Shown here: positions 30,211 to 56,751 of the stretch, one piece after another | Position numbering within the stretch: position 1 is the stretch's first letter | How the letters are laid out: the number at the start of each line of letters is the position of its first letter | Source: Verrucomicrobiota bacterium | GTDB taxonomy: Bacteria > Verrucomicrobiota > Kiritimatiellia > SS1-B-03-39 > UBA6053 | NCBI GenBank assembly: GCA_020831635.1 | Contig: JAFIGC010000013.1 | Location: forward strand, 385 to 64,384 | Direction of reading: 5' to 3' | Length of the DNA: 64,000 bases | Position numbers and translations under genes: made by a program | Notes under the pieces: model-generated | Database searches by the model: none | What the model was told of the DNA's origin: nothing | Seen by the model: the letters and a program-made list of their open reading frames with translations, nothing else

Positions 30211-30330
30211 AAACCGGCATTATTTTCAACCAATGTGTTTTGGAGCTTGTCGAAGGGGGAGAAGGTTTGTTAGTGTTTTTTTGATTTAGATTTGAACAAA
30301 CCCCGCAAATCGGGGTAGGATGAATTGATT

Positions 30331-31107
30331 ATGAATGTACCCTCCTCCAATCCAAACAGCGTTAAAGACGCAAAGCGGGCACCGGCTTACCCCGGGTGTC
30401 GGCATTCCGGTGTCGCATCTGGCTTCACATTGGTTGAATTGCTGGTGGTCATGGCCATCATCATCCTGATTTCGGGCTTTATCGTCACCGCGATTTCCGG
30501 CGGTGATGGTAGCCAAGCCCTGAATTCCGGCATTTCCAAGGCAAACGGAATTTTCAGTGTGGCCCGATCCGCGGCGGTGCAGCGGAAAGCACCCATGCGG
30601 GTTTTGGTTCACTTTGATCCAGAGGACCCCGACAAATTCTTGAGGTACATGGTGACCCTGTATTTGGATGACAGCGAAACGCCTCCCCAATGGAAAGTAT
30701 ATTCAGAGGGTCAATATTTACCTAACGGGGTGTATTTCAGCCCTGGCTACTCCGGTCAGGCGGGCAATTTGCGCCTCCAAACTTGGCGATTGACCGTGGG
30801 GGATGATTATCAAGTGAATTTGATTCAACCAAACCCTCTTTTTCGTAATCCTTATGCCATGGGCAATCTGAATGTTGACCCGCTTAGTCATGCCATTCCC
30901 GGGCGTGACCAGTGGTACACGTTTGAGTTTAATGCAAATGGCACCTCCCATCAACCGGGTGTCCGTTTTGTATTGGCCAATGGCATATTGAACCTTCAAA
31001 ATCTTGAGTTGCGTATTCCCAACGCGGAAATCCTGGGTGGGTTTGTGATTTTTCGAAGCGGAAAAGCCGTCCATTTTCAAGATACCAGTCAAATCACAGG
31101 AAATTAA
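30331..31107 (+). CDS. Prepilin-type N-terminal cleavage/methylation domain protein (pseudopilin-like)
   Basis: G-FTLVELLVVMAIIILISGF is the class III signal and N-methylation motif. The pre-sequence of about 31 aa before the G-F site is unusually long. ATG 30331 is preferred; the ORF-track start at 30325 is TTG. Confidence 0.8.
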   Translation: MNVPSSNPNSVKDAKRAPAYPGCRHSGVASGFTLVELLVVMAIIILISGFIVTAISGGDGSQALNSGISKANGIFSVARSAAVQRKAPMRVLVHFDPEDPDKFLRYMVTLYLDDSETPPQWKVYSEGQYLPNGVYFSPGYSGQAGNLRLQTWRLTVGDDYQVNLIQPNPLFRNPYAMGNLNVDPLSHAIPGRDQWYTFEFNANGTSHQPGVRFVLANGILNLQNLELRIPNAEILGGFVIFRSGKAVHFQDTSQITGN

Positions 31108-31110
31108 ACG

Positions 31111-31794
31111 ATGATGAATAATTCACCTAAGCAGGGCCACCGACGACGGGCCGGATTCACCTTGGCGGAAATCCTGTTGGCAATGTTGGTTTTCGCCATT
31201 GCCATTACCACGATTTTGGCTTTGCTCGCTCGTTCCATTGAAACCGTGGATGAAATCGTTTTGAGAGATGAAGCCATGCGGTTAAGTTCGGCCGTTGAAA
31301 GCTTCATGAGAGATTTACCTTTCAATGAGGCCTATGAATTTGTCCGAAATGAAAGCGTTTATCTGCAAGGCAACTTTTATTCAGCTGACCCGAACAGAAA
31401 TCTCCGCGTAGATGGCACCATGTGGGAAATCCCCATTACCGATCGGAATCAAGCCCAAATGAATGCGGGTGAGGATTTCCTGGTCGCTCCCGTCGTCAGA
31501 CCGAACAGACCTTTCACAGCCAACAACGGTAGGGCCATTAATTTGGGTGCAGCGAGGAACCTCGCAGAACGTGACTATAGAGCCCGCATGGGGCGCTATT
31601 TTCAAATCCGATTGGTGGTTTCGGAAACCAACCCCATTGCCGCGGCGGACATGCCGAGCAACCCGGATGATTATGAGTCGGCCGTCATCGTGGTCTATGC
31701 CGAATTTTACCCCATGCCCACTTGGGAGCGCGTTTTTTCCGACAACCCCAACGCCCGGCCGGTTTACTCCTATAACTTTGCGGTGAGACGATGA
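31111..31794 (+). CDS. Prepilin-type N-terminal cleavage/methylation domain protein (pseudopilin-like)
   Basis: RRRAGFTLAEILLAMLVFAIAITTILALL is a prepilin motif with Glu at position +5. It begins 3 nt after the upstream gene. Confidence 0.8.
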   Translation: MMNNSPKQGHRRRAGFTLAEILLAMLVFAIAITTILALLARSIETVDEIVLRDEAMRLSSAVESFMRDLPFNEAYEFVRNESVYLQGNFYSADPNRNLRVDGTMWEIPITDRNQAQMNAGEDFLVAPVVRPNRPFTANNGRAINLGAARNLAERDYRARMGRYFQIRLVVSETNPIAAADMPSNPDDYESAVIVVYAEFYPMPTWERVFSDNPNARPVYSYNFAVRR

Positions 31795-32657
31795 AAAATA
31801 TGAGTACCACATCCTGTCCATCCTCTCAAGGCATTCGCAAACGCGCTGGTTTCACCCTCATGGAGGTGATGGTCAGCTCGGCCTTGACTTTGGTCATTCT
31901 TGCCATGCTGTTCGGTATTCTCATGGGTGCCATGAACGCTTGGCAGACGGGATCTTCCCGCCTTCAGGAAAACGCGGATGCCCGCATGGCACTGGATTTG
32001 ATCGCCCGGGATTTGCAAAGCATGGTCGTGCGGCAGACCACCATTGATCAGGAATGGCTGGTCTCGGGCCCCGTGGTGACCCCCGGCGATCCAACAGGCA
32101 CCTCCAATCCGCATACATCAAACTGGCTGATGTTTTTTTCGCCCTCCTTGGATCGTGATGCGGGTCAAGAGGGCGATATTGTTGCCGTGAGCTACCGCGT
32201 GGGGTATCAGGATCCCATGACGAATAACACGGACAGTAACTACAAACTTTTCGGCTTGTACAAGCAAATGGAAAGCACCACCAATACCTTCTTGAATGTG
32301 CTGGGGCTCCAAGACATCATGGCGGATCATTGGATGGCGGCGGATACGTTGAACGCCAGTGGTTTGATTATTCCAAATGTCGTGGATTTCTCCATCAACT
32401 GGCAAATTCGCCAGCAGAATGGAGACATTGGGTACGAGCCGGAAGTCGTGCGCTTGGGGAATACATTGACAACTTCGACGGTCGGCAATCCGCTTCGCAT
32501 AGTAGCCGCGGACATTTCCCTGACGGTTGTCAATGATGCCGGAGCAAAGCGCCTGCAACTTCTGGAGCGGACCGGGAATTTGGGGCAAAACCAGTTGAAT
32601 GACGTGATCACGCAATTTGGACGCGTATTCACCACTCGGGTCAAAATCGAGTATTAA
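31791..32657 (+). CDS. Prepilin-type N-terminal domain protein, GspJ/PulJ-like pseudopilin
   Basis: KRAGFTLMEVMVSSALTLVILAMLFGIL is followed by QENADARMALDLIARDLQSM, which is typical of GspJ-like minor pseudopilins. ATGA overlap with the upstream gene. Confidence 0.7.
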   Translation: MKNMSTTSCPSSQGIRKRAGFTLMEVMVSSALTLVILAMLFGILMGAMNAWQTGSSRLQENADARMALDLIARDLQSMVVRQTTIDQEWLVSGPVVTPGDPTGTSNPHTSNWLMFFSPSLDRDAGQEGDIVAVSYRVGYQDPMTNNTDSNYKLFGLYKQMESTTNTFLNVLGLQDIMADHWMAADTLNASGLIIPNVVDFSINWQIRQQNGDIGYEPEVVRLGNTLTTSTVGNPLRIVAADISLTVVNDAGAKRLQLLERTGNLGQNQLNDVITQFGRVFTTRVKIEY

Positions 32658-32663: not shown

Positions 32664-32686
32664 AAGTGCACGTCCCGCACTTTTTT
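32664..32686 (+). terminator. Weak candidate intrinsic terminator after the pseudopilin trio
   Basis: Stem AAGTGC, 7-nt loop and stem GCACTT are followed by TTTT. The stem is only 6 bp, so this is tentative. Confidence 0.3.
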
Positions 32687-32797
32687 GGCGAGTCATGCTT
32701 GCCAATTTTTTCTGTGTGGGTATGGGGAGGGTATTGTTATATTTCTCCTTGGATTCCCCCTCATTCACACGACCCTCGATGACAGCGTAATGCCGAT

Positions 32798-33538
32798 ATG
32801 ACCGAGACACACCATTCTCAATCCCCATTGATTCAAGCCAAAAATTTGGAGCGGGTCTACCGTACCGGCGAAGAAGTGGTGTATGCGATCAAAGACGTGA
32901 CCCTCGACATTTATCCCGGGGAGTACCTCTCCCTGATGGGGCCGTCGGGTTCCGGCAAAAGCACGTTTTTTAATATGGTGGGGGCTTTGGACATTCCCAC
33001 GGATGGCACGATTTCCATCGGTGGGCGGGACCTGCGAAAACTCAAAAGACCCGAATTGGCCTACCTGCGCTGCGTGAACATCGGCTATATTTTCCAGAAT
33101 TATAACCTGATCGAAGTGGTCAGCGCCCTGCGAAACGTGACTCTTCCCATGCGATTTCGAGGATTGTCCGAGGCGGATGCCCGGGAAAAGGCCGCGGTTT
33201 TGTTGGAAAGCGTGGGGTTGGGAGAGCGGATGCATCACTTGCCCGGCGAACTTTCCGGCGGCCAACAACAGCGCGTGGCCATCGCAAGAGCGTTGGCCAA
33301 CGATCCCAGCCTCCTGCTGGCGGACGAACCGACCGCGAACCTCGACAGTAAAACCGGCTTGCAGATCGTGGAATTGTTAAGCCAGTTGAGTCATGAACGC
33401 GGGGTGACCGTGGTTTCCGCCACCCACGACCACAATATGTTGGCCGTCAGCGACCGGGTGGTTTACCTTCGGGACGGGGCCGTGGAACGCGTGGTGAAAC
33501 GTGAAGATTTGGACATTCAAGTGGGACACATCGAATGA
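32798..33538 (+). CDS. ABC transporter ATP-binding protein, MacB/LolD/FtsE-like (class II of the module, copy 2)
   Basis: [41 protein letters not shown]. The class II marker SALRNVTLP is shared with 13918-14697. Confidence 0.9.
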
Positions 33539-36393
33539 AGCATGCCCTGACGATTCTTTTTGGCGCCCTGTTGATCGCCATCATCACGCCTTTGGCCCAA
33601 TTCAGCACCTTGGCCATGGTCAACCACGATCTGGAGACTTCGGCCGCTTCCGGTTGGGTGTTTGGCCTCCTCTTCGCCTTTGTGTTGGCGGCGGTGGCGT
33701 TGCGTCTGATTACCCGCAAGCCTTGGTTGAATCGCGGGCAGGTGGTGCTGATTTTCTCCATGCTTTCCATTGCCGTGCCCATCATGAACCTGGGATTGGT
33801 CCGCCCGTTGTTCCTCTCCTTGCGGGCCGTCCAGCAACATTATGTGGGTTTGGGCGTGGATACCTACCGGCGCGCGTATCAGGAACAATCTCCCAATTGG
33901 TTTCCGGTGGTGCCCACCACCGAGGGGTTGGCCCATCACAAGGCCGATCGGCTTTTGCGTCTTTTGAATGACGACGGCTTGGCCCGGCGGAGGCAAAACG
34001 CCCTGAACGAGTGGTTGTTGGATCTGCAAATCGAGGCCCGCCAAGTCGAGCGGGGCCTGGACCCCCGCGAGGAGGTCGGCGCGGAATTGTTGGAACGCTT
34101 GGAAGATTTGGGACTGATTGAAGTGGAGCGCATCCGCTTGACCTTGGATCGCGACGAGAATTTGCAGGAAGTCGCCGCGCGTTTGCAACTCATCCAACCC
34201 GTGGAAACCCTCTACGCGCGTTTGCGAACCGAAAGCGCCGAGGCCGCGGAAACCCTTTTGGCGCGAATTCAAGATTTGGACGAGCGGGACTTCTATTTTG
34301 TCCCCAGTGTGCGCCGTGAATTCGATCGGGGCATTCGCGGGCGTTTGACCCGCTTGTTGGATGAGCAACTCGACGCCGAAGAACGAAACGCGGTTTTGGC
34401 GCGGGGCCGCGCCCTCGAGGAGGAGCTGCCGGCGTTGCGGTCCTTGATCATGCAAATGGGGGAGCGGGATCGGGGACAAGTGCAGCGGGCCCGGCGGGAG
34501 GCCCATGAGCAAGTGTTCCACGCCATGGACCCCGTCGAACTCGCCGAAATTCGCACCGAATTTATTTTCCGCTCCCGGACCCAGGAGCGTAGCGGCATGT
34601 ATGCCCAACGTCCGGCCGCCGAAATTCCCAATCACGATCTCGCGGCCATGGAAGAATCCGTGTTCAGAACCAGCGAAGAAAAGGACATGCTGCGGGAAAT
34701 GGGCTTCAGGCAACGGATCGGATTTGTCATGGGCCAAGTCCCCGCGGAACTGTGGCGGGGTCCCCTGATCCGTTGGGCATTGTTTTTCCTCTCGATTTTC
34801 CTGTTCCTCATGTGTCTGGCGGAATGGTTGCGCCGCAAATGGGTGGATCGCGAAAACCTGGCCTTCCCCCTGGTGGAAGTGGCCGATCAGTTGATCCGCC
34901 ACGATTTCCGCTTGGAAACCGCCGAGGACTTGTTGCACCCCGAAAAACGGCGGGGCATGTTTTCCAACGTCTTCTGGGGCGGATTCGCCTTGGGCATGCT
35001 GATTATGGTGGTGGAAGCGGTCGGATATTACGGGCAGGGCACCCAACGGGTCATTGCCTGGGATTTGACCGCCGTCTTTGGCTTGCGGGAACTCAACAAT
35101 CTGGTCTTCGTGCTTTCGCCCATCCTGATCGGTCTCTTCTTTTTGGTGAGCTTGGAAATCAGCTTTTCGGTCTGGACCCTTTATCTGATTACCCGGGTGA
35201 CCTTCCTGGCCATTGGATTGCGGGCCGATGGCGCGATTCGAGATCCAAACTACGTGGGATGGGCCTCCCGGGGCTTTCCCTTCGAAATGGAACAGTTGCT
35301 CGGCGCGGGCGTGTGTTGTGGCGTGCTTTTGCTGATCAAGGCTTGGGGCGCCTCCGGAAAAAGCGAGTCCGCCGGCACCTCCGGCACCCCTTATTTGCCC
35401 GGAAAATTGACCTTGGCCGGATTGATAGTCTTGCCCTTGCTGATGATGGGGTTTGTCTATGATCTGGGGATGAAACATATCGGCGTGATGATTTTCTTCG
35501 GGGTGGTGTTGCTTTTGATGGTGATCACCTCCGCGCGCTTGCGCGCCGAAACGGGCCTGCCCATGCAGCAGGTCAATTACGATTTCACGCGATTCCCCAT
35601 GATGTTCGGGCTGTCGGGAACGATGGGGGTCAAATCCTTCCTGAATTATTTCGCCCTGGTGTTTCTGCCCGTCAGCCTCTTGTTCCGCCTTCTGCCCCAA
35701 CAGCTTGAAAATCTGGAGTTGGCCCGGCGCCACCAAGTCAAGGGCGGAATGTTGGCCTTGGCCACGTTGGTGGCCTTTGTTACCGCCTTGGGCGTGGGGC
35801 TGTTCAGTTTTCTTCTCATGGTCTATTGGGTGGGGGCGCCCGCTTTGGGCGCGGGCGCCGTGGGGCAAGGACCCGAGCCTTCCGCGATCATGGCCTATCC
35901 GCTCTGGGTTTCGCACTTTCTTGGCGAACAAGGATTGGGCACTTTCACCCAAATTCATCGTACCCGTTTGATTTTTGTTTTCGTGGGCGCATTCATTTTC
36001 GGCGTGCTCACCCTGCTGCGCAATCGAATTTTGCGCTTCCCGTTTCACCCCTTGGGCTATTTGCTGTTCCTGTTCAGCGTTTATCATGTTTGGTTGTCCC
36101 CTTATCACAAGGGCATCGATGGCGTGAGCTTGAACGGGGCCTCTTGGTTGTGGGGCAGCGCATTCGTGGCTTGGGGCATTAAAAGCCTGGTAATCAAATA
36201 TGGGGGGATGAATACCTACCGCAGTGCCAAACCCGGCTTCGTCGGCTTGATCGTCGGCGCCTTGGTGGCCCTGTTTCTGATCAACCTCGTGGATCTCGCA
36301 TATTCCATTCGGGCCACCGATCCGCAATACGAGCCGGGGGATGGGCAAAAGTCCTTTGTCGAATCCCCCGCTTTCACCCCCAGAGTTTATTGA
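33535..36393 (+). CDS. Polytopic membrane protein, family A of the duplicated module (copy 2)
   Basis: 952 aa; ATGA overlap with the upstream ATPase. It has a long Arg/Glu/Leu-rich soluble insertion after the first helices. The membrane core and C-terminal FPFHP...IKSLVIKYGG motif are paralogous to 787-3234. Confidence 0.8.
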   Translation: MKHALTILFGALLIAIITPLAQFSTLAMVNHDLETSAASGWVFGLLFAFVLAAVALRLITRKPWLNRGQVVLIFSMLSIAVPIMNLGLVRPLFLSLRAVQQHYVGLGVDTYRRAYQEQSPNWFPVVPTTEGLAHHKADRLLRLLNDDGLARRRQNALNEWLLDLQIEARQVERGLDPREEVGAELLERLEDLGLIEVERIRLTLDRDENLQEVAARLQLIQPVETLYARLRTESAEAAETLLARIQDLDERDFYFVPSVRREFDRGIRGRLTRLLDEQLDAEERNAVLARGRALEEELPALRSLIMQMGERDRGQVQRARREAHEQVFHAMDPVELAEIRTEFIFRSRTQERSGMYAQRPAAEIPNHDLAAMEESVFRTSEEKDMLREMGFRQRIGFVMGQVPAELWRGPLIRWALFFLSIFLFLMCLAEWLRRKWVDRENLAFPLVEVADQLIRHDFRLETAEDLLHPEKRRGMFSNVFWGGFALGMLIMVVEAVGYYGQGTQRVIAWDLTAVFGLRELNNLVFVLSPILIGLFFLVSLEISFSVWTLYLITRVTFLAIGLRADGAIRDPNYVGWASRGFPFEMEQLLGAGVCCGVLLLIKAWGASGKSESAGTSGTPYLPGKLTLAGLIVLPLLMMGFVYDLGMKHIGVMIFFGVVLLLMVITSARLRAETGLPMQQVNYDFTRFPMMFGLSGTMGVKSFLNYFALVFLPVSLLFRLLPQQLENLELARRHQVKGGMLALATLVAFVTALGVGLFSFLLMVYWVGAPALGAGAVGQGPEPSAIMAYPLWVSHFLGEQGLGTFTQIHRTRLIFVFVGAFIFGVLTLLRNRILRFPFHPLGYLLFLFSVYHVWLSPYHKGIDGVSLNGASWLWGSAFVAWGIKSLVIKYGGMNTYRSAKPGFVGLIVGALVALFLINLVDLAYSIRATDPQYEPGDGQKSFVESPAFTPRVY

Positions 36394-39300
36394 TGGAGTC
36401 TTTTGACGGCATGAACAAGCATATTCGATTTTCTCAAAACGCATTTTTGACGGCTTTCCTTGTCCTTTCCTTCGCTTTGACCGGCGTCGTGGACCGGGTA
36501 TTCGCCGGTCAACAGGATGCGGTGGCGGGTCGATTGAGCCGGGAAGAGCGGCGCATTTTGCGCAGTTTGCCGGCCTTGGGCGGGGAAGCGTTGCGGGATT
36601 TGTCTTTGGCCGTTTCTCCGGAGGCTTTGGAGTCGGACGTACGGGAAATCCTTGCATTCGCCCCGCTCTCCCTGGGCGCGCGGCAGGACGGGGACGCGTC
36701 CGTACACGATTGGGTGAAAACCCGGCTGTCCCCATTGTCGGGCGTCGAATGGTTGGGTGAGCTTCGCGAACGGATTCCCGTGCCCGTCCCGCTCTCGCAG
36801 GCCACGAGTTTGCGCGAGCGCCGCGAGTTGCACACCGAACTGCGCGTTGGGGACGAAACCTACGAGATTCACCCGTTTTGGCCCAATGGCGCCTTGCCGA
36901 CTTTGGCGCCGGAAGGCGGATTGCGGGGGCGGTTGGTTTATGTCGATGACGGCGAGTGGCAGGACCTGGAAGGTTTGGAAATCCGGGATGCCATCATCCT
37001 GATGAATTTCAAGGGCGGTCGCAATTGGAACCAGGCCTTGGAACTGGGGGCCAAAGCCGTGATTGCCATCGAAGACAACTACATCACCCGCCCACTCGCG
37101 GAGCGGTTCTTTTCGAATACGCCCATTCCTTTTCCCCGTTATTACGTGGACCGGGAAACCGGGGCGCGGTTGATCGACCGCGCGGAACGCAAACAAGCCG
37201 AGGATGACGGATACGCCGTGGTGCAAGGGGAAGAGGTGGAAATCCACGGCGGCAATTGGTTCGAAAACCGAATCGCCCGCAGCATGTTTGCCTGGATGCC
37301 CCCGCATGACGCGCTGGAAATCACCATTCGGGACACCGATTTGATAGACCGGATCGCCGCGCAATTCGGCTTGGAGGCTTCGGATATCCGCGATGAAAAC
37401 CAGTTGCCGGGGCCCGCGTTGTCCGCGGGGACCGAACTGATCATTCCCGGTCGGTTGGAAACCTATACGGTCAGGGAAGGGGACCTGTTGGAACGACTGT
37501 TGCGGGAATACCAAATCAGCCGCGAAGAGCTTGAAGCCGCCAGCGGCGCGCTGAATCCCGAGTTGCCCGCCGGAACCACCTTGCGCATTCCCCCGTTGGA
37601 CCGCCCCATGGTCGTCCTCGTTCGCCTGGAATCCGTCAGTTCCGTGCCCGGCTTGCCCCATGGCGCGAATGCGGCCGCGAACATCGCCGTGGCCACCCGA
37701 CTCTTGGAAATGTCCCACGCCATGCCCGAGGGCACCCGCAGACGCGGACTGCTGGTTGCGTTTTTGGAAGGGGATGTGCATGGCGGACGGGCCACCCGCC
37801 GCCTGTTGGAAACCTATTTGATGGACAACCAATTGATCGCGCCTGCCGCCGTGACCGCTTCCGGGGGCGCGGACGAAGAGGTCAATTTCCAGCGCTATCT
37901 GGATGTGGCCAAATGGCTTCGAAACGAAAAAGATCGTCCAGGGGAGGAGGCGTTGAACTGGTTTGTGGAGGATTGGCTGTACAACCAATTGAATCAATTC
38001 CGGGTGGAAGTCGCGGAAATGCGGGTGGATGCCATTCGCACGGCCATCAATCACCCCGGCCAAGTGGACGAAATGACCGCCATTCGCTCGCGAATGGAGT
38101 CCAAAATCGACACCATCGTAAAAATTCGCGACAGGACCCTGACCAACCGGGGCTTGGGCTATTTGCAACGGGCGGAAAACTTTCTGAGCGCCGCCGACGA
38201 TTTTATCGCGGAAGTGGAGGGGGATCCCTCGCTGGATCGCGCCTCGATGCTGGAGCTTTTCTTCATGGAAGTGGATGAAGAGCAACAACTGCGGGAACTC
38301 ATGGACTCGAACCGCATCGTGGCCGAAAAAGTATTGAATGTGATCCGTCCGACCGGAGCGTCCATTCCCCTGGATTCGCCCCGTCAGGGATGGTGGTTGA
38401 ACTTGAGCCCCGGGAGCCCGCACCTGGAGTTTACCCCCGTGGGCGATTACCGGGAGATGACCGGCCCGAACAACGCCACCGTCCGCACCATGGTCGAACG
38501 ATTTGACCGCGTGCAGGCCTTCGCGGCCCTGCAGGCCGGGTGGACCGAATCCTGGCCGTTTGTCGGAAACGACGTCCGCGCCGTTTTTCCCTTGTTGTCC
38601 ATCAATCCTCCGCCCGCATATGCCGAACTGTGGGCCGCCATGGGCGTGAGCTTGATCCCGCTGCGCGCCGCGAACGATCCCCGCCACAAATTGGATACAC
38701 CCCTCGATGTGCCCGATCATTTTGATTTTGACGCCTTTTCCACGTTGGCGCGCGGCGGGCTACTCCTGTTTCGGGTGAGTTTGGAAAGCGCCAGGGACGG
38801 TTCCGTTCCCGGCTCCCTTTCCCCGCCCCCGATGAGCCGTTTGGTGGGGACCACCACCCGCTTCAATATCCGCAGCGGGATTGACGCCCGTGATCCGGTG
38901 CCCCGGACCTTGGTATATTTCCCCGCGATCCGCAACCCGGGCGGGATCACCGCCGAATGGGGGGCGCACAACACCGCCACCTTTATGGGCAACCGCCTTG
39001 GCGTCATGCAATTTTCGCTCCTCAACGGACGCTATTCCCTGCCCGTGGAAGCCCAGACCTTCAGAGGCGGCAAAAACGTCCATGCCTATGTGCACGATGA
39101 ACGCAGCGGCTTGTTTTCCATGATCATGGACGGCGGACGCATCGGCACCCAGGTGCAAAGTTACTCCTTCGATTTCGCCGAAAGCCGGGACGCTTACAAA
39201 AACCTGATCATGTACGAGTTGTACCCCCTCGTGCTCAGTCCCGGGGTCGAACCCCTCGGTTACAGCACCCCCAGCACGCCCGCCATGCTGCCGCAAATTC

Positions 39301-41969
39301 AGGATGCGGTGCTCAAAGGCGTTCCCCGCCATTACAATATCGAACATCCGCGCATCCATTTCGGAGAAAGCGAGTTGGAAGGGACCCTCATCTACATGGA
39401 ACCCGGACGCCGCCTGATCATGCTCGATTCGCGCCAAGGCAATCTCCGCAGCCTGTTGATCGGAGATTTGGACCCCAACGACCCCACCAGTTTGGAGGGA
39501 CGGGGGATCCCCTTTGGCCCCGTTGGAGACAATCGCAACCTCGTGTTGCCCATCGCCCCCTATGAAATCGCCAAAAACCTCCAGGCTGTCAGTGAACGGC
39601 GCATGAATATTTACGAGGCTTTTGGCATTCGCGACCAGGAACTCAGCGCCACCTTGGAGATCAGCCGTCAAAAATTGGAGGAAGTGGAAGCTCATTTGGC
39701 GGCCCGCGAATGGCAGCAGGCCATTGGGCGATCCCGCGAATCCTGGGGGATGTTGATCAAAAATTATCCGGCCATCATGCGGCTGGGACGCGAGGCCGTG
39801 CTGTCGGTGGTCATCCTCATGGGCCTGTTGGCGCCCACATCCGTTTTCCTCGAAAAATTGGTGCTTGGCGGCAAACATATTCTCGCGCGTCTGGGCGGCA
39901 CCGTGCTCATTTTCGTGTTGGGCACCGTATTTTTGAATTTTTTCCATCCGGCCTTCAAAATCGCCATGTCGCCCTTTATCGTGGTGATCGCTTTCACCAT
40001 GATTCTCATGGCCGGTATTGTGCTCAGCATTTGTTATCAGCGGTTTGAAGTGCTTGTGCGCCGGGCCCGCATCGAAGGCGGGGAAGCCGAAAGCGAGGAA
40101 ATCAGTTTGATGAGCACCCTGAGCACCGCTTTTTCGCTAGGGGTTTCCAACTTGAAAAAACGTCCCACGCGAACCATTCTCACCGCGTTTACCGTAACCG
40201 TGCTGACGTTTTCCATCGTATCCTTCGTGTCCGTTCGCGGACAGGACACCCTGTTTTTGCGCCCCGTCGAACTCGACCAAACCATCCAAGGGGTGGCGAT
40301 GGAGGAAGGGGAGGCCATGCCCCCGGATTACCAAGGCGCTTTGTTCCGGGAATCCAATTGGGCGCCGCTCAACAACGATTTCATGAACGCCATTCGCACC
40401 GAATTCGGTTCCCGCTTCCAACTCGCGCGACGCGCCCATTACATTGAAGTCGCCGGTGGGAACAACGCCGCCCTCGAAGGACGCAATCAAATTGAAATCA
40501 GCAAGGGACGTGAGCGCGAAATCGTCACCGCGCTCATGGCCTTCGAACCCATCGAAACCGAATTCACGGGCTTGAACCGGGCCGTGAACCATGGCAATTG
40601 GTTCCGGGGCGCCGAAGGGGATCGACCCGAGGATCGCTTCCACATCATCCTGCCCGCTCGGGTTGCCGAAGTGTTGGGCATCACTCCCGGGGACTTGGTG
40701 GACGGCGAAGGAGACCGACGCCCCGACGCGGAACTGCCGCAAGTGAGGATGATGAACAATGACTGGCGGGTTGTCGGCATTCTTGATCCCCACATTGCCG
40801 ACCGCATCCGGGATGTGAATGGCAAATCCCCGGCATTGGTCGATTATTTGCGCAGCGCCATCACCCCCGCCCTGGGCACCGGCGCCCTTGAAACCGAAGA
40901 TGAACACACGCACATGAGCTTCGACGATCTGGCCATCGTCCCCTTGTCGGCTAGAACCAATGTGCGGGCCGGATGGAGTTCCCTCGCGATCCGCTTCCCG
41001 GACGATTTTGATTTCGAAGCCTTCCGCTCCGAATTGGCCCGCCGCATGGACCGGGCCATGTACGCGCATGTCGGAAACGACATCAGCCTTTTGTCCGCAC
41101 GCAAACAACAAAGCGTGGGCGGGCTGGCCAAGGTCATCGTCCCCATTATTCTCTGCGTGCTCATCGTGTCCAACACCATGATGGGCACCGTGGACGAGCG
41201 CGTGAGCGAAGTGCAAATGTTGGGCGCGATCGGCTTGTCTCCCTCCCAAATCAGCTTTTTGCTCCTCTCCGAATCCACCGTATTCTCTTGTATCGGCATT
41301 ATTTTCGGCACCTTTGCCGGGCTATTGTTCTCGCAATTGGTGGGCTTTTTCCCGGACACCTTGGGCCAATTGAGTTTTAATTTCACCTCGCTCGCCTCCA
41401 CCTTTCTGGCCATGGGCACCGGCGGCATCGTCTTGTTGGCCACCCTGATCCCCGCCAAAAAAGCCGCCGCCCTCGCCGCCCCCAGCGGCATGGACAAATG
41501 GGAGCTTCCCGAACCGGAGGCCGATGGCCACATCCGTTTCAGGCTGCCCTTTACCCTGACCCGCGGCAACGCCATCGGCATGGCCGCTTTCTTCCGGCGC
41601 TTTCTCCTGAACCACGTGGACAGTTCCTCCGCCGATTTCATCAGCAAAGGCGCGGCCATGTATCGCGAAAGCGCGGAAACCGGGCAGGGACTGCGTGTGA
41701 CCTGTCACATGTGGCTGGCCCCTTACGACCTCGACGTGGCCCAAGACTTGGTGCTGCACATCGATCCCACCGAAAACGAAGGTGTATTCGGGGTGACCAT
41801 TGTCTTGAACCGCACTTCCGGATCCGCCGATGCGTGGATGCGTACCAACTACGGATTTTTGGATTTGGTCCGCAAACAGTTTCTGCTGTGGCGGAACCTC
41901 GACCCCGCCATGCGAAAACGATATATTCAGGAAGGCGCCACCGAACTTGAAGGAAACCAACCGGTATGA
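36393..41969 (+). CDS. Giant FtsX/MacB-type permease fused to a degenerate PA/M28-like ectodomain carrying two LysM-like motifs (copy 2)
   Basis: About 1858 aa. ATG 36393 overlaps the upstream stop (TGATG); an alternative ATG is at 36411. PA-like segment is RDAIILMNFKGGRNWNQALELGAKAVIAIED. Two LysM-like motifs lie at 37320-37592. The M28-like scaffold VLVRLESVS...HGANAAANIA...VAFLEGDVHGG lacks canonical metal ligands. A MacB-type TM1 (KKRPTRTILTAFTVTVLTFSIVSF) and an FtsX domain (VDERVSEVQMLGAIGLSPSQISFLLLSESTVFSCIGIIFG) follow, then a C-terminal tail paralogous to that of copy 1. Confidence 0.75.
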   Translation: MESFDGMNKHIRFSQNAFLTAFLVLSFALTGVVDRVFAGQQDAVAGRLSREERRILRSLPALGGEALRDLSLAVSPEALESDVREILAFAPLSLGARQDGDASVHDWVKTRLSPLSGVEWLGELRERIPVPVPLSQATSLRERRELHTELRVGDETYEIHPFWPNGALPTLAPEGGLRGRLVYVDDGEWQDLEGLEIRDAIILMNFKGGRNWNQALELGAKAVIAIEDNYITRPLAERFFSNTPIPFPRYYVDRETGARLIDRAERKQAEDDGYAVVQGEEVEIHGGNWFENRIARSMFAWMPPHDALEITIRDTDLIDRIAAQFGLEASDIRDENQLPGPALSAGTELIIPGRLETYTVREGDLLERLLREYQISREELEAASGALNPELPAGTTLRIPPLDRPMVVLVRLESVSSVPGLPHGANAAANIAVATRLLEMSHAMPEGTRRRGLLVAFLEGDVHGGRATRRLLETYLMDNQLIAPAAVTASGGADEEVNFQRYLDVAKWLRNEKDRPGEEALNWFVEDWLYNQLNQFRVEVAEMRVDAIRTAINHPGQVDEMTAIRSRMESKIDTIVKIRDRTLTNRGLGYLQRAENFLSAADDFIAEVEGDPSLDRASMLELFFMEVDEEQQLRELMDSNRIVAEKVLNVIRPTGASIPLDSPRQGWWLNLSPGSPHLEFTPVGDYREMTGPNNATVRTMVERFDRVQAFAALQAGWTESWPFVGNDVRAVFPLLSINPPPAYAELWAAMGVSLIPLRAANDPRHKLDTPLDVPDHFDFDAFSTLARGGLLLFRVSLESARDGSVPGSLSPPPMSRLVGTTTRFNIRSGIDARDPVPRTLVYFPAIRNPGGITAEWGAHNTATFMGNRLGVMQFSLLNGRYSLPVEAQTFRGGKNVHAYVHDERSGLFSMIMDGGRIGTQVQSYSFDFAESRDAYKNLIMYELYPLVLSPGVEPLGYSTPSTPAMLPQIQDAVLKGVPRHYNIEHPRIHFGESELEGTLIYMEPGRRLIMLDSRQGNLRSLLIGDLDPNDPTSLEGRGIPFGPVGDNRNLVLPIAPYEIAKNLQAVSERRMNIYEAFGIRDQELSATLEISRQKLEEVEAHLAAREWQQAIGRSRESWGMLIKNYPAIMRLGREAVLSVVILMGLLAPTSVFLEKLVLGGKHILARLGGTVLIFVLGTVFLNFFHPAFKIAMSPFIVVIAFTMILMAGIVLSICYQRFEVLVRRARIEGGEAESEEISLMSTLSTAFSLGVSNLKKRPTRTILTAFTVTVLTFSIVSFVSVRGQDTLFLRPVELDQTIQGVAMEEGEAMPPDYQGALFRESNWAPLNNDFMNAIRTEFGSRFQLARRAHYIEVAGGNNAALEGRNQIEISKGREREIVTALMAFEPIETEFTGLNRAVNHGNWFRGAEGDRPEDRFHIILPARVAEVLGITPGDLVDGEGDRRPDAELPQVRMMNNDWRVVGILDPHIADRIRDVNGKSPALVDYLRSAITPALGTGALETEDEHTHMSFDDLAIVPLSARTNVRAGWSSLAIRFPDDFDFEAFRSELARRMDRAMYAHVGNDISLLSARKQQSVGGLAKVIVPIILCVLIVSNTMMGTVDERVSEVQMLGAIGLSPSQISFLLLSESTVFSCIGIIFGTFAGLLFSQLVGFFPDTLGQLSFNFTSLASTFLAMGTGGIVLLATLIPAKKAAALAAPSGMDKWELPEPEADGHIRFRLPFTLTRGNAIGMAAFFRRFLLNHVDSSSADFISKGAAMYRESAETGQGLRVTCHMWLAPYDLDVAQDLVLHIDPTENEGVFGVTIVLNRTSGSADAWMRTNYGFLDLVRKQFLLWRNLDPAMRKRYIQEGATELEGNQPV

Positions 41970-44050
41970 GTGACCCAACCCCCGACCCCACCACAAAGAA
42001 AAAACCGGCCAAAGGCAACGCGGAAGCCTTTTACGACTCACAGTTCAGCATCGAAGCGATGCAAAACGAGCCGTGTGAGAACGGCTTCACCTGGCGAACG
42101 GTCGTCGGTGCCCTGTTCATCGCCCTGGTGATGCTGCCCGGCATTATCTTCATGGGCCTCATGATCGGGGAAGACATGGGCAGCGCCGCCGACTGGGTGG
42201 TGATCATCCTTTTCGTGGAAATCGCCCGCCGCTCCTTCATTACCCTGCGCAAGCAGGAATTGTATATTCTCAAATATACCGTCAGCAGTTTGTCGAGTGT
42301 CTCCGGGAGCGTGGCGCTGGGCGGAGGCGTGTTCGCGTGGATGGTATTCAACCGATATCTGCGCAACTCCGAGGAATTCGCCAACTTTGGCATTGCCCAT
42401 GAAGTGCCCGACTGGTTTGCGCCCTTTGGCGACGCCGCCTACCAAGGCGGATTTTTCGCGGAAGTCTGGTGGCCCGTCCTCATCGTCACCGTTCTCACCA
42501 TGGTGCTCAACAAACTCACCCAGCTTTCCCTGGGCTTTCTCGCGTACAAAGTCACGGTCGACGTGGAACAGCTTCCCTTTCCGCTGGCGCCCATTCAGGC
42601 GGAAGGCGCCATCGCCTTGGCCGAAAGCAGCGAGGACAAAGACAAAAAGAATTTCCGGCAATACTGTTTTTCCATTGGCGCCATGATCGGGGCCGTGTTC
42701 GGCATTTTCTACGTGGCCGTCCCCATTCTGACCAGCGCCTTTTTCGACAGACCCCTGCAACTGATTCCCATTCCCTTCCTGGACTTGACCTTGGCCATGG
42801 AGCACATCATTCCGGGGGCCTTGATTGGCATCACCCTGAACCTCGGCCTCTTGTTCACCGGGTTCGTTTTGCCGTGGCGCATTGCCGTGGGCATGTTTTT
42901 CTCCACGGTTTTCTTCAAAATCATCTTCAACACCGTCCTGCAACGCAACGGCCTGTTGCCGAGTTGGGCCCCGGGCAAAGACGCCATCGAAACCCAGGTG
43001 GCCGACACCCTCGACTTTTATTTGTCCTTTGGCATTGGCACCAGTTTCGCCGTGTTCGCCGTGGGGCTTTTCGGCATGATCAAAGCCATCAAGGCCTACA
43101 GTAAAAAGAGCAAATCCAGTGATGATGACGTCCACGCCTCCGGGGGCGGCGACATCGATCTGTCCAAATTCTGGGAACGCAACAAAGACCGCGGCGATCC
43201 GCCCACCGGCCTGATGGTCGGCATCTGGGTGATCTCCGCATTTTGCTTTGTGCTGCTGTCCAATCATTTGATCAACGCGGGCACACCGGCCGAGGAGCGT
43301 TTCCCCGTGGCTTGGCTCATGGGCTTCGCCTTCCTGTGGACCCCCATCAACACCTACATCAACGCCCGCATGAGCGGGATTGCCGGACAGCACGCCGGGG
43401 TGCCCTTTGTCTTTGAATCCGCCATTTTCGCTTCCGGATACCGCGGAGTCAACATTTGGTTCGCCCCGCTCCCGCTCAACAACTATGGTGGCGTTGCCGA
43501 CATGTTTCGGGTTTGCGAACTGACCCGCACCAAGCTCACCTCCATTTTCAAGGCGGAGTTGTTCATTTTCCCGCTGATGTTGGTGGCCTCTTTCATTTTC
43601 TGGAGCTACATCACCGGATTGGGCCCCATTCCCTCCGACAATTATCCCTACGTTCAGAAATTCTGGCCCATGCACGCCCAGATGCGGGCCCTTTGGGCAT
43701 CCGCCATGCAGGAAGGTCAGTCCCTCCTGCTCGATGCCTTGAAACCTGGTGTCATCGGCGGCTCCTTTGCGCTGGGCTGTGCGCTGTTCGCCGGATTTGC
43801 CTTTCTCGGCATCAGTTCCCAATACATTTACGGCGCCCTGGCCGCCGCCAACGGCTATCCCCACAATGCCATCATGATCTTTGCCGGCGCCTGTCTGGGT
43901 CGGTACGTCCTGGCCCAAAAATTCGGGAAAGAGCGTTGGCAAAACTTCGCCCCCATTCTCGCGGTCGGATTTGGCGCCGGAATGGGCTTGGTCGGGATGC
44001 TCGCCATCGCCATTAACTTCCTTTGGGCCTCCATAGGAGTCAGCTACTAA
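41966..44050 (+). CDS. Polytopic membrane protein, family B of the duplicated module (copy 2; possible OPT-like)
   Basis: 694 aa; ATGA overlap with the upstream gene. It is collinear in sequence with 11803-13890 (GFTWRTVVGALFIALVMLPG, LPFPLAPIQAEG, ARMSGIAGQ, CELTRTKLTSI). Confidence 0.6.
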   Translation: MSDPTPDPTTKKKPAKGNAEAFYDSQFSIEAMQNEPCENGFTWRTVVGALFIALVMLPGIIFMGLMIGEDMGSAADWVVIILFVEIARRSFITLRKQELYILKYTVSSLSSVSGSVALGGGVFAWMVFNRYLRNSEEFANFGIAHEVPDWFAPFGDAAYQGGFFAEVWWPVLIVTVLTMVLNKLTQLSLGFLAYKVTVDVEQLPFPLAPIQAEGAIALAESSEDKDKKNFRQYCFSIGAMIGAVFGIFYVAVPILTSAFFDRPLQLIPIPFLDLTLAMEHIIPGALIGITLNLGLLFTGFVLPWRIAVGMFFSTVFFKIIFNTVLQRNGLLPSWAPGKDAIETQVADTLDFYLSFGIGTSFAVFAVGLFGMIKAIKAYSKKSKSSDDDVHASGGGDIDLSKFWERNKDRGDPPTGLMVGIWVISAFCFVLLSNHLINAGTPAEERFPVAWLMGFAFLWTPINTYINARMSGIAGQHAGVPFVFESAIFASGYRGVNIWFAPLPLNNYGGVADMFRVCELTRTKLTSIFKAELFIFPLMLVASFIFWSYITGLGPIPSDNYPYVQKFWPMHAQMRALWASAMQEGQSLLLDALKPGVIGGSFALGCALFAGFAFLGISSQYIYGALAAANGYPHNAIMIFAGACLGRYVLAQKFGKERWQNFAPILAVGFGAGMGLVGMLAIAINFLWASIGVSY

Positions 44051-44691
44051 TGAGTACCGCATCCTCCAGCGCGCAACCCACGCCCACGCCAACTCCCCGG
44101 GCCAATGCCCAGTCCACCTGGGACATTGGACAGCTCAAGCTTTCCCCCGAAGTCGTGGCTTCCATGGCCGTCAACAGCCTGCGACAGCGTATCAGCCGGG
44201 CAATCCTCACCCTGTTGACCATCAGCACCGCCACCGCATTCATGATGTATCTGCTCACCATGCCGCGCTCGACGGATCCCGTGGACGTGCAAAGTTGGCG
44301 TTTGATGATGGTGCTGTCTCTCGTGGTCAGCGGCGCGGGTGTTTTGAACACCATGCTCATGTCCGTCACCCAGCGATACCGCGAGATCGGCACCATGAAA
44401 TGCCTGGGCGCCCTGGACAGCTTTATTTTGTACAGCGTTTTGCTCGAAGCCGCCATTTTGGGGTTGATCGGCGCCATTGCCGGTGCCATTTTCGGCCTGG
44501 TGATCTCCATTCTGCTCGCCATGGCCGACCATGGCGGAAACGTCTTCGCGGCCATGGAACTCGAAGGCATCGGCGGCAAATTCCTTTTCGTCTTTTTCGT
44601 CGGCATGGCCCTCACAACCCTCGGGGCGCTCTTCCCCGCCTTCATCGCCTCCAAAATGCCCCCCATGGAAGCCATGAGAGGAGAAAAATAA
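44050..44691 (+). CDS. Minimal FtsX-type ABC permease (small partner, copy 2)
   Basis: 213 aa from ATG 44050 (TAATG overlap). TM1 AILTLLTISTATAFMMYLLTM is followed by a loop of only about 12 residues, then the FtsX domain LNTMLMSVTQRYREIGTMKCLGALDSFILYSVLLEAAILGLIGAIAG and the ending KMPPMEAMRGEK. The TMKCLGA(M/L)D motif is shared with 4565-6040. Confidence 0.8.
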   Translation: MSTASSSAQPTPTPTPRANAQSTWDIGQLKLSPEVVASMAVNSLRQRISRAILTLLTISTATAFMMYLLTMPRSTDPVDVQSWRLMMVLSLVVSGAGVLNTMLMSVTQRYREIGTMKCLGALDSFILYSVLLEAAILGLIGAIAGAIFGLVISILLAMADHGGNVFAAMELEGIGGKFLFVFFVGMALTTLGALFPAFIASKMPPMEAMRGEK

Positions 44692-44695
44692 TCCA

Positions 44696-45520
44696 ATGAC
44701 TTTGAATCCTCCAGATCCCTCGACTACTCCTGATACGCCACTAGAAACTCGTCACTCGACACTCGAAACTCGTCATTCCATAGATGATTCCGTTGAATAT
44801 ACGGTGATGACCCGCGACGTGGTGAAGGTTTACCGCATGGGCGACACCGAAGTGCGGGCCTTGGATGGCGTGGACGTCACCATCCGCACCGGAGAGTACA
44901 TTTCCATCATGGGCCCTTCCGGTTCGGGAAAAACCACCCTCTTCAATGCCATTGGCGGACTCATGAAACCCACCTCGGGCAATGTGTTCATCGACGAAAT
45001 CGACGTGGCCCAGCTCGATGCCAACGAACTGGCTTGGCTGCGCTGCCGGAAAATCGGCTACATCTTTCAAAGCTACAACATCGTCAAAGTCATGACCGCC
45101 CTCGAAAACGTCACCCTCCCCATGCTTTTTGGCGGGGTGCCGCCCGACGAAGCCCAGGACCGCGCCGTGGAAATCTTGGAAAGGGTGGGGCTGGGGGACC
45201 GCTTGTTGCACACCCCCAAAGAGCTTTCCGGCGGACAACAGCAACGCGTGGCCATTGCCCGCGCCTTCGCCAACAACCCCGCGATTATTCTGGCCGACGA
45301 ACCCACCGCCAACCTCGACATCCACACCGGCGAGGAAATCATCTCGCTCATGAAAGAGATGAACCGGGAACGCGGCGTCACCGTCATCTGCTCCACCCAC
45401 GACCATAAAATGCTCGATATTTCCGACCGCATCGTCTGGATGCGCGACGGAAAAGTCCAGAAAATCGCCCGGCGCGACGAGGTGGACATCGAAATCAACA
45501 CCATGAAAGACAAAGGTTGA
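44696..45520 (+). CDS. ABC transporter ATP-binding protein, MacB/LolD/FtsE-like (class I of the module, copy 2)
   Basis: [40 protein letters not shown]. Class I markers LRCRKIGYIFQSYN and ERGVTVICSTHDH are present. The N-terminal approximately 35 aa include a tandem heptapeptide (ETRHSTL/ETRHSID). An alternative start at 44807 would truncate the first beta strand, so the long form is preferred. Confidence 0.85.
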   Translation: MTLNPPDPSTTPDTPLETRHSTLETRHSIDDSVEYTVMTRDVVKVYRMGDTEVRALDGVDVTIRTGEYISIMGPSGSGKTTLFNAIGGLMKPTSGNVFIDEIDVAQLDANELAWLRCRKIGYIFQSYNIVKVMTALENVTLPMLFGGVPPDEAQDRAVEILERVGLGDRLLHTPKELSGGQQQRVAIARAFANNPAIILADEPTANLDIHTGEEIISLMKEMNRERGVTVICSTHDHKMLDISDRIVWMRDGKVQKIARRDEVDIEINTMKDKG

Positions 45521-45668
45521 TCCACAACAACTATTAACGGCTTGCTCATAAAATCCTGACATCTGAAGTGCATATTGTGCGCGGTTTTACGGACCACTTT
45601 CAGGTCCATATGAAACATCCAGATAAACCCCGGCGGCAAAAGCCGTCAAACAGGAGAGAGACAAGTAC

Positions 45669-46850
45669 ATGAAAAACACATGGATTAAAACCTTGGCCGG
45701 CATTTCCGCCGCAGGCGTGATGACGATCAGTCAAACCGCAAGCGCCGATTACGGCAAACTGCTCGAAACCCTTCGGGACAACGGCACCATCACCGCGGAA
45801 CAGGCCGAAGGCCTCAAAGCCCAGCGTGTTCGTCCCGCGAACAGCTTCGTGCGGGACTTGCAGATCCGCGGACGCGTCCAGACGCAGTTCGGATACACCA
45901 CCACCGACAACGACGAAGGCAGCAGCGATTACAGCACTTTCGAAGTGCGCCGCGCCCGCATCGGCCTGCGCGGAACCTTCCCGAATGATCTGCGTGCCCA
46001 GTTGGAAGCCAACCTCGTGCCCGGCTCCAGCCTCAGCATGCGCAGCGCCTTCTTGCAGTGGCGCAAACACAAACCCGCCTACATCAAGGTCGGATTTGAC
46101 AAACCCCACAGCTCCTTGGAAGAAAACACCTCCTCGGCTGAAATTATCACCGTGGAGCGGACCCTTATCAGCAATACCGTGGCCGCTCCCGGCCCCATGA
46201 CCGGTTTTGCGGTGGACGGTGATCTTGGCACCATTTATTACGGCGCCGGCGTTTACACCGATCAAGACAACAGCAACGCTGCCAACGCCAGCTCCGACTA
46301 CCTCGTCAATCTGCACCTCGGCGTCAAACTCGACGGCCTCGTTGGCGAAGGCTCGAAGTTGCGCATTCAAGGATCTTACCTGACCAGCGATGATGAAAGT
46401 GGCAGTTTGGCATACGAAGACGTATACACCCTCGCGCTGCACTTTGCGCAGGGCGCCTTCGATCTGCGCACCGAATACATCCTGGGCGACAATGATGGCG
46501 AAGAAACCTCCGGTTTCTACATCATGCCGTCTTTGATGCTGTCCAACAAACTGCAAGGCGTGGTCCGTTATGAGTACGCCGAGTCCGACAAGGCCACCGG
46601 TCTGCGTGCCGCCAGTCGCTATGCCCGTCGTTCCGAAGACCTCGCCGTGCGCGACGCAACCGAAACCAGCCCCAAATTCGATCCCCAACGCGGTGACGAA
46701 TACCAGGCCGTTTACCTCGGTTTGAACTACTACATCCAAGGCGATGGCAACAAGGTCATGCTCGGCATCGAGTTCTCCGAACTCGACAACACCTATGCGG
46801 GTACCCTTGAGGCCACCACCCTCTACGCCGCCTGGCGCGCATTGTTCTAA
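45669..46850 (+). CDS. Outer-membrane porin of the phosphate-selective porin O/P (OprO/OprP) family
   Basis: Signal peptide MKNTWIKTLAGISAAGVMTISQTASA. IRGRVQTQFGY...FEVRRARIGLRGTF...LRAQLEANL...SAFLQW matches the Porin_O_P N-terminal pattern. The rest is beta-rich and ends in an aromatic residue (ALF). Confidence 0.75.
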   Translation: MKNTWIKTLAGISAAGVMTISQTASADYGKLLETLRDNGTITAEQAEGLKAQRVRPANSFVRDLQIRGRVQTQFGYTTTDNDEGSSDYSTFEVRRARIGLRGTFPNDLRAQLEANLVPGSSLSMRSAFLQWRKHKPAYIKVGFDKPHSSLEENTSSAEIITVERTLISNTVAAPGPMTGFAVDGDLGTIYYGAGVYTDQDNSNAANASSDYLVNLHLGVKLDGLVGEGSKLRIQGSYLTSDDESGSLAYEDVYTLALHFAQGAFDLRTEYILGDNDGEETSGFYIMPSLMLSNKLQGVVRYEYAESDKATGLRAASRYARRSEDLAVRDATETSPKFDPQRGDEYQAVYLGLNYYIQGDGNKVMLGIEFSELDNTYAGTLEATTLYAAWRALF

Positions 46851-46877: not shown

Positions 46878-46904
46878 GGCCCCGCTTCGGCGGGGCCTTT
46901 TTTT
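46878..46904 (+). terminator. Rho-independent terminator after the porin gene
   Basis: Stem GGCCCCGC, loop TTCG and stem GCGGGGCC are followed by TTTTTTT, 28 nt after the porin stop. Confidence 0.85.
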
Positions 46905-51317: not shown

Positions 51318-51353
51318 GGTGTTGTTTCCATTGTTGGGTGTGGGTCCCGCTGT

Positions 51354-55704: not shown

Positions 55705-56751
<1,047 letters not shown>

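Follow-up and report, generated by a model that had tools for sequence, protein, structure and literature searches.

The stretch of DNA analysed here, a window of 64,000 nucleotides from contig JAFIGC010000013.1 of a Verrucomicrobiota bacterium, carries two related clusters of genes for ATP-binding cassette (ABC) ATPases, FtsX-type proteins and further membrane proteins, the second of which, designated module 2, is the main subject of this report. Module 2 comprises six tightly coupled genes (32798-45520 in window coordinates, which are used throughout), all of which are located on the plus strand and appear in the list of open reading frames (ORFs) at the positions given in an earlier reading of the sequence, termed the original prediction below. 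In the order of the strand, they encode a class II ABC ATPase of 246 amino acids (32798-33538), a protein of family A with 952 amino acids (A2; 33535-36393), a giant FtsX protein of 1,859 amino acids (G2; 36390-41969), a protein of family B with 694 amino acids (B2; 41966-44050), a small FtsX protein of 213 amino acids (44050-44691), and a class I ABC ATPase of 274 amino acids (44696-45520). The original prediction described these parts as joined by overlaps at 33535, 36393, 41966, and 44050, and overlaps of start and stop codons can be read in the sequence at all four junctions: ATGA at 33535 (class II ATPase and A2) and at 41966 (G2 and B2), TTGATG over the TGA stop codon at 36390-36393 (A2 and G2), and TAATG with an overlap of 1 nt at 44050 (B2 and small FtsX). 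A gap of 4 nt separates the small FtsX gene from the class I ATPase gene. The 5' boundary of the module is formed by a terminator-like hairpin on the plus strand (32685-32705; a nine-pair stem followed by a T-run), which closes the pseudopilin-type genes located upstream.

The giant protein G2 is composed of a signal peptide, a periplasmic domain of about 1,090 residues, a bundle of three membrane helices (residues 1129-1214; 39774-40031, defined by hydropathy), a single FtsX unit (residues 1262-1693; 40173-41468), and a C-terminal tail (residues 1700-1859; 41487-41966) that is predicted to be cytoplasmic. Signal-peptide-like starts are present in G2 and in its module 1 counterpart G1 (VFA/GQ and ARA/VE). 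Within the periplasmic domain, a PA-like domain (residues 149-255; 36834-37154) is 35% identical to residues 89-193 of G1 in blastp, and two LysM domains follow it (residues 312-402; 37323-37595; Pfam LysM, E 4e-11), for which the sequence search of the PDB returned 4uz2 and 4xcm. LysM domains were found in 8 of the 40 giant-family members scanned, these 8 being the clade of module 2 and its relatives (the copy-2 clade), and G1 has none. In G1, residues 40-311 align in the PDB sequence search to the PA and M28 domains of the aminopeptidase YwaD and weakly to Nicalin, and a partial Pfam M28 match, seen among the two giants only in this one, scores 26.5 against a gathering score of 21.3; across the family, 22 of 40 members match M28 (best E 9e-13). 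The His, Asp, and Glu residues that serve as zinc ligands in M28 peptidases are replaced across the 40 members: most have Tyr or Pro in place of the first His, the Asp of the GAxDN motif and the Glu-Glu pair are absent, and the last His is an Asp in 33. This replacement points to an ectodomain built as a PA plus M28-like pseudo-peptidase.

The FtsX unit of G2 consists of a first transmembrane helix (TM1), a periplasmic domain of about 290 residues, and TM2-4, with the Pfam FtsX match at residues 1586-1693. It is related to the small FtsX family with an hhalign probability of 98.9%, and the PDB sequence matches of G2 also include LolF, MacB, and LolC. The preceding three-helix bundle was considered as a degenerate second FtsX unit and rejected, the hhalign probability against the FtsX region being 0.2%; the giant thus has one FtsX unit and not more, which corrects the original prediction. 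Conserved motifs in an alignment of 21 sequences define the tail of about 160 residues, which is kept across about 1,000 representative clusters and which, searched alone as sequences and as a profile, has no match in Pfam, PADLOC, or the PDB. The membrane half of both giants is matched by the PADLOC model PDLC01991, 'CARF_m8--CARF_LolE_TM' (G2 residues 1086-1807, 39645-41810, E 2e-44; G1 residues 903-1528, 9543-11420, E 1e-42), which suggests that this protein family has been catalogued before, in a census of CARF domains, CARF being here the label of the model only. Searched exhaustively, the membrane half gave 997 representative clusters (50% identity) at E <=1e-30. The matched proteins range from about 650 to 3,053 residues, most of them from about 1,450 to 2,150, and the N-terminal ectodomain is therefore variable.

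Both ATPases of module 2 (Pfam ABC_tran; class II, E 2e-32; class I, E 3e-35) are, by their motifs, predicted to be catalytically intact; the class II protein has a canonical Walker A motif, LSGGQ signature, Walker B motif, and H-loop. In NCBIfam, the ATPases come closest to LolD, DevA, MacB, and FtsE, without reaching any of the curated cut-offs: LolD scores 218-227 bits against a cut-off of 308 and FtsE about 200 bits against 265, and for the FtsX-type proteins LolC/E scores 15-34 bits against 362-540 and FtsX 28-32 bits against 225-255. The class I ATPase has an N-terminal extension with a repeated TLETRHS motif, which is encoded by a 21-nt tandem repeat of 2.4 copies (44726-44775) in the 5' end of its gene. 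Pfam FtsX is found in both giants and in both smaller FtsX proteins of the window, in the usual layout of TM1, periplasmic domain, and TM2-4, and PDB sequence matches comprise LolF, MacB, LolE, and YtrF. The small FtsX protein of module 2 (Pfam FtsX, E 1e-17) has, by hydropathy and sequence, four membrane helices and almost no periplasmic loop; as for a periplasmic domain of the Porter/Sabre type, the insert between TM1 and TM2 measures about 12 residues in this protein and about 290 in the giant, for which no MacB_PCD match was found.

Families A and B are both assigned to the OPT/YSL transporter fold on the basis of structure models. A2 carries DUF6785 and DUF6784 above the Pfam gathering scores (156.6 and 61.9 bits; E 1e-45 and 7e-17), as does its counterpart A1 in module 1 (250.2 and 62.6 bits; E 5e-74 and 4e-17). 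An AlphaFold2 model of A2, built from an alignment of 35 sequences, has a mean confidence (pLDDT) of 85.8 and a predicted template-modelling score (pTM) of 0.88, and the only protein in the PDB that it matches significantly is the barley transporter YS1 (7wst; E 1e-4, probability 1.0, template-modelling score on the target 0.55). A model of B2, built from 15 sequences and of moderate quality (pLDDT 62, pTM 0.60), likewise matches only YS1 (7wst; E 5e-9, template-modelling scores 0.54/0.61), the next match having an E value of 0.13. A second YS1 entry, 7wsr, is matched by both models, and all other PDB matches have E values >0.1. Hydropathy and the model of A2 further show that the third membrane helix is followed by a helical insert of about 310 residues, which by the positive-inside rule would be periplasmic. 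Helical periplasmic inserts also occur in A1 and in the FtsX protein of module 1; the idea that all three are one mobile domain was rejected because they share no blastp similarity.

For family B, the assignment is consistent with several annotations. One relative (P0115) scores 34.5 bits with the Pfam OPT model, above its cut-off of 25.8, about 30 of 120 relatives of B1, the module 1 member, have a precomputed PF03169 match, and NCBI product names for B1 read 'peptide transporter' or 'OPT/YSL family transporter'. The B-family profile matched no solved structure by sequence, and B1 and B2 themselves have no match to Pfam OPT (PF03169) even at E 10. The profiles of A and B, once trimmed, are related at E 1e-3 with an hhalign probability of 19%, which is marginal, and with 2% in the tool's own comparison; a value of 96.7% was discarded as inflated by untrimmed stop-to-stop ORFs. 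The kinship of A and B thus rests on the common fold and a common (E)xLxFPL motif and not on profile statistics, and the two are therefore called OPT-fold proteins and not proven paralogs. With the models taken as a guide, DUF6785 and DUF6784, as well as a B family that lies outside Pfam coverage, would obtain a structural identity.

Module 1 (787-14697, plus strand) is the counterpart of module 2 and consists of seven genes, coding for A1 (787-3234), a PqqD-like protein (3231-4568, 445 amino acids), an FtsX protein (4565-6040), a class I ATPase (6052-6837), the giant G1 (6837-11759), B1 (11803-13890), and a class II ATPase (13918-14697), all on the plus strand; the same order is found in the orthologous locus L083. 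The original prediction held that all six components of module 2 have paralogs here, in permuted order, and that module 2 lacks the PqqD-like gene. Both statements are borne out, with families A and B included, by blastp and Pfam; the count of six does not fit module 1, and its FtsX partner, with 491 amino acids, is not small. Identity amounts to 34% between B1 and B2 along the whole protein (E 5e-129), to 24.5% between G1 and G2 over 1,178 residues (E 2e-61), and to just 23% between A1 and A2 (E 7e-6), and the small FtsX protein shares 44% with the C-terminal 136 residues of its module 1 counterpart. The two classes of ATPases proposed in the original prediction are real: identity between the copies is 62% within class I (44696-45520 and 6052-6837) and 56% within class II (32798-33538 and 13918-14697), in comparison to 48-54% across classes, and the two classes occupy distinct positions in related loci. 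Since B aligns over its full length and A shares both DUFs, a similarity confined to generic ABC and FtsX domains is ruled out. The PqqD domain (35.3 bits against a gathering score of 23.4) occurs in module 1 only; Pfam and the survey with hidden Markov models (HMMs) described below found it neither in module 2 nor in any copy-2-type locus. The PqqD-like protein is present in most lineages and predicted to be cytoplasmic. The module 1 protein looks like a fusion, and two Phycisphaerales loci (L162, 1251-2644; L163, 1088-2409) carry, separate and adjacent, an uncharacterised gene for about 300 amino acids and a PqqD gene for 139-155 amino acids.

At the DNA level, the copies share only short stretches, mostly in the ATPase genes; the longer ones do not exceed 72% identity, and three of 34-90 nt reach 77-88%. 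According to GenBank accession runs, A1, B1, the second ATPase of module 1, and B2 lie on one contig in two independent metagenome-assembled genomes, in which the contigs carrying both copies measure 64,474 and 75,303 bp. Because of these two observations, an assembly duplicate, named in the original prediction as a possibility to be checked, is ruled out as the source of the second copy. In public records, the same contig is labelled Verrucomicrobia bacterium and Kiritimatiellae bacterium in the two assemblies. Both module types are also present in sample SRR13748697. A metagenome scan made to find another genome with both copies did not retrieve a 5-Mb contig.

Relatives of this set of genes are found in more than 10 phyla, and the set, referred to here as the kit, consists of A, the giant, B, a small FtsX protein, an ATPase, and often the PqqD-like protein. 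A scan of species-representative genomes returned at least 564 relatives of B, with carriers in the Opitutales, the Phycisphaerae and other Planctomycetota, the Armatimonadota (including Abditibacterium utsteinense), the Gemmatimonadota, the Latescibacterota, the Marinimicrobia, the Lentisphaeria, WS1, the Desantisbacteria, and others. Gene order was surveyed by labelling the ORFs of about 160 loci with HMMs made from the window proteins, for the kit families only. Of 90 loci with sufficient flank, at least 64 have the giant gene immediately before B. Among 54 loci with wide flanks, the giant occurs in 43, an ATPase in 33, the small FtsX protein in 30, A in 25, the PqqD-like protein in 15, and two ATPases in 14. 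About twenty gene orders were distinguished, examples being GBQfN, NAGBfN, NNAGB, AQfNGBN, GBAQfN, and QfNAGB (G, giant; f, small FtsX; N, ATPase; Q, PqqD-like; A and B, the two families), and the pairs of small FtsX with class I ATPase and of giant with B remain intact through every rearrangement. In all phyla sampled, the class I ATPase gene invariably comes after that of the small FtsX protein; the class II ATPase is an extra paralog, placed after B, before A, or after the class I gene. Genes beyond the kit are not conserved around the related loci. B occurs without the rest of the kit in 11 of the 54 wide-flank loci, and Phycisphaera mikurensis carries B alone (L082, 10001-12100); family B can therefore probably act by itself. 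Loci L082, L040, and L064 have B-family genes with no giant FtsX gene within 10 kb, and the solo B genes form several small clades nested among linked ones.

The split between the two modules is ancient, since the copies are situated at opposite ends of the B-family tree and B1 and B2 are only 34% identical; module 2 would then represent a divergent sister lineage. B1 and B2 meet only at the root of a neighbour-joining tree of 150 sequences (midpoint-rooted), so that of the duplication which the original prediction sought to date by phylogeny the paralogy stands and a recent date does not. Each copy has its own orthologs: those of B2 (62-86% identity) occur in Opitutales and Phycisphaerae, those of B1 (59-87%) in Verrucomicrobiota, Planctomycetota, and Polyangiaceae, and B2 (34%) is more distant from B1 than B proteins from other phyla are (43.5% on average). 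The copy-2 clade is characterised by the lack of a PqqD gene, LysM domains in the giant, A proteins of 950-1,000 residues, and a small FtsX protein reduced to a minimum. In the module 2 lineage, the PqqD-like subunit seems to have been lost, LysM acquired, and A extended.

All parts of the kit have known folds, and its interest lies in their conserved coupling and not in the second copy itself. MacB-type (type VII) ABC systems transmit ATP hydrolysis to periplasmic domains. The kit resembles them in its ATPases, which are nearest to LolD, MacB, FtsE, and DevA, and in its four-helix FtsX unit, in which a periplasmic domain separates TM1 from TM2, and differs from them in a giant that adds a signal peptide, an ectodomain of about 1,090 residues, a three-helix bundle, and a cytoplasmic tail. 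Unlike MacAB-TolC, the module has no MacA-like adaptor and no TolC, its ATPases are unfused, and OPT-fold partners are present. With LolCDE it shares two different single-unit FtsX proteins encoded together with LolD-like ATPases, and the small/giant pair proposed below is modelled on the LolC/LolE heterodimer with two LolD; however, scores remain far below the NCBIfam Lol cut-offs, one partner is almost devoid of a periplasmic domain, and many kit members have two distinct ATPases. FtsEX with EnvC or PcsB likewise combines an FtsX motor, a dead peptidase-like module, and long helices, with LysM in the copy-2 clade taking the place of LolM-type peptidoglycan binding, whereas the pseudo-enzyme of the kit is M28/PA-like instead of LytM or CHAP and fused in cis, no amidase partner belongs to the kit, and the relatives are not at a division locus. 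As for the OPT/YSL family (PF03169; barley YS1, 7wst), A and B are modelled in this fold and in nothing else in the PDB, but the B proteins of the window miss the Pfam model, A is a DUF6785/DUF6784 protein with a large helical insert, and the genes of both are firmly tied to those of an ABC system. PDLC01991 is shared through the membrane half of both giants, although the defence context is missing here, and Nicalin and transferrin-receptor-type pseudo-M28 proteins have the PA plus M28-like fold devoid of zinc ligands but are eukaryotic and belong to another context, so that this is a resemblance only. Much work exists on FtsX-type ABC systems and on OPT carriers taken separately, and a literature search found neither a report of their coupling nor a study of the kit, nor anything relevant on DUF6785, on FtsX with PqqD, OPT, or M28, or on CARF_m8. 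Here, conservation of the coupling extends to at least 564 species genomes in more than 10 phyla, and the survey reveals two inseparable gene pairs, small FtsX with class I ATPase and giant with B. The cultured carriers Natronomicrosphaera hydrolytica AB-hyl4 and Abditibacterium utsteinense make the system testable, and a single genome with two diverged copies offers a natural comparison of PqqD without LysM and LysM without PqqD.

With a little better than even confidence, we regard module 2 as a complete member of this conserved, uncharacterised kit and its products as one composite inner-membrane machine. The overlaps at the junctions, the adjacency of giant and B, and the synteny across phyla argue that the parts work together, and the last of these strengthens what the original prediction had deduced from two copies. 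In such a machine, the small and giant FtsX proteins would pair in the manner of the LolC/LolE heterodimer and be driven by the two ATPases. ATP hydrolysis would perform mechanical work in the periplasm instead of pumping cargo through the FtsX helices; the pseudo-peptidase ectodomain would carry out this work by binding a peptide-like ligand, which in module 2 may be located on or near peptidoglycan; and A and B would be the actual conduits across the cytoplasmic membrane, carrying peptide-like cargo. The peptide theme is taken from the OPT fold, the NCBI names of B1, the M28/PA ectodomain, and the cytoplasmic PqqD-like protein. OPT/YSL carriers characterised so far are importers, and export or extraction is the activity of most FtsX-type ABC systems that have been characterised; we tentatively favour capture and uptake or salvage of a peptide-like cargo, with less than even confidence, over two-step export, the less probable direction. 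Going further, one may think of a previously unrecognised, hybrid class of transporters in which OPT-fold carriers and a type VII ABC mechanotransducer form an obligate assembly, the ATP-driven pseudo-peptidase gates or feeds the carrier, and the tail and the PqqD-like subunit may serve as ligand sensors; we consider this a possible but doubtful extension.

Several points weigh against the composite machine. Contact of the ABC part with A or B is a prediction from the genes, and both the direction of transport and the cargo are guesses. No membrane-fusion protein adaptor, TolC-like gene or domain, or conserved outer-membrane partner was found in the two modules or in the related loci for which Pfam matches were listed, the other loci having been surveyed for kit families only. 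The solo B genes, that of P. mikurensis among them, the failure of B1 and B2 to match Pfam OPT, the marginal A-versus-B profile comparison, and the moderate quality of the B2 model count on the same side.

The solo B genes, found in several clades, also speak for the view that two separate systems lie side by side, the FtsX/ABC proteins and the OPT-fold permeases being independent and perhaps acting in the same pathway; to our knowledge, all characterised OPT/YSL carriers work without ATPases, as is established for the family. We consider this arrangement unlikely, since the adjacency of giant and B survives about twenty gene orders and more than 10 phyla, the two genes appear to be translationally coupled in module 2 by their overlap, and A travels with the kit, too. 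By analogy with FtsEX-EnvC, the machine might instead be a device of the cell wall, in which the motor moves a coiled-coil pseudo-peptidase and thereby controls a peptidoglycan hydrolase, and A and B import the peptides released. The two LysM domains in the giants of the copy-2 clade, the EnvC-like combination of a pseudo-enzyme with long helical segments, and the position of the modules among murC, ddl, ftsQAZ, an Amidase_2 gene, rodA, pbp2, and mreBCD fit such a role, which we nevertheless hold to be rather improbable, as only the copy-2 clade (8 of 40 members) has LysM, relatives do not keep the cell-wall neighbourhood, and the kit contains no hydrolase gene.

Two-step export of peptides, taken as a full account, is in our view improbable to a similar degree: the PqqD-like protein would present a peptide, A or B would export it to the periplasm, and the motor would expel it through an outer-membrane channel in the manner of MacAB-TolC. 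This scheme agrees with the activity of most known FtsX-type ABC systems, with a cytoplasmic peptide-recognition domain of the PqqD type in most lineages, with the porin behind module 2 and the secretin-domain genes behind module 1, and with a radical SAM/SPASM gene near the modules of L166 and L167. However, neither a conserved precursor peptide or maturase nor a membrane-fusion adaptor or TolC was found in the listed loci, the porin and the secretins are lineage-specific, module 2 lacks PqqD, and the characterised OPT/YSL members import. The PDLC01991 matches of both giants would be expected of a nucleotide-sensing defence effector, in which the giant, as a CARF/LolE-type fusion, answers cyclic oligoadenylates; we deem this very improbable, because the match covers the membrane half, the tail alone matches nothing, no CRISPR-Cas or cyclase genes occur in the window or in related loci, and the context is one of housekeeping genes. 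Least probable of all, to a degree that is practically negligible, is an assembly or duplication artefact, in favour of which nothing was found: besides the DNA comparison and the two assemblies described above, the proteins are only 23-62% identical and each copy has its own orthologs elsewhere.

Directly behind module 2, separated from the class I ATPase gene by 148 nt, lies a porin gene (45669-46850, plus strand) whose product has a signal peptide and matches Porin_O_P with 60 bits against a gathering score of 20.9 (profile positions 2-175 of 370), and a hairpin resembling an intrinsic terminator (46878-46897, plus strand; eight G-C pairs followed by T7) is located 3' of it. The OprO/P type, the distance, and the strong terminator are thus as first described, whereas the porin is not a conserved part of the module: apart from the window, only L001, the closest relative (86% identity of B2), has it behind the module; it was not found in other copy-2-type loci with downstream flank in view or in other surveyed loci, and it is a lineage-specific neighbour. 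Two short genes with Secretin domains directly after module 1 (14773-15894 and 15891-16862, plus strand) mirror the porin; neither L083, the locus of the module 1 ortholog with 87% identity, nor any other locus surveyed has them. Upstream of module 2, three genes with a prepilin N-methylation motif are located directly before the hairpin (30325-32657, plus strand). Three genes of similar size occupy this place in L166, L167, and L168, whose A proteins are about 68% identical to A2; the first of them has a weak N_methyl match in L166, those of L167 and L168 are without a Pfam match on record, and genes of this type are absent in Phycisphaeraceae L169 and Puniceicoccaceae L170. Porin, secretins, and pseudopilins were each considered as kit members and rejected, as they are shared with few or no related loci. 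The radical SAM/SPASM genes mentioned above lie about 3 kb upstream of copy-2-type modules (L166, 5506-6828; L167, 106-1443), and no such gene is found at that position in the window.

The genes of cell wall synthesis and division in the window, a neighbourhood that is not conserved in relatives, comprise murC, ddl, ftsQ, ftsA, and ftsZ between the two modules (18698-24469) and rng, rodA, pbp2, mreD, mreC, and mreB after module 2 (49719-56730, minus strand). Between ftsZ and the Amidase_2 gene, an ORF of 1,309 amino acids on the minus strand (24472-28401) gives just a weak Heparinase II/III C-terminal match.

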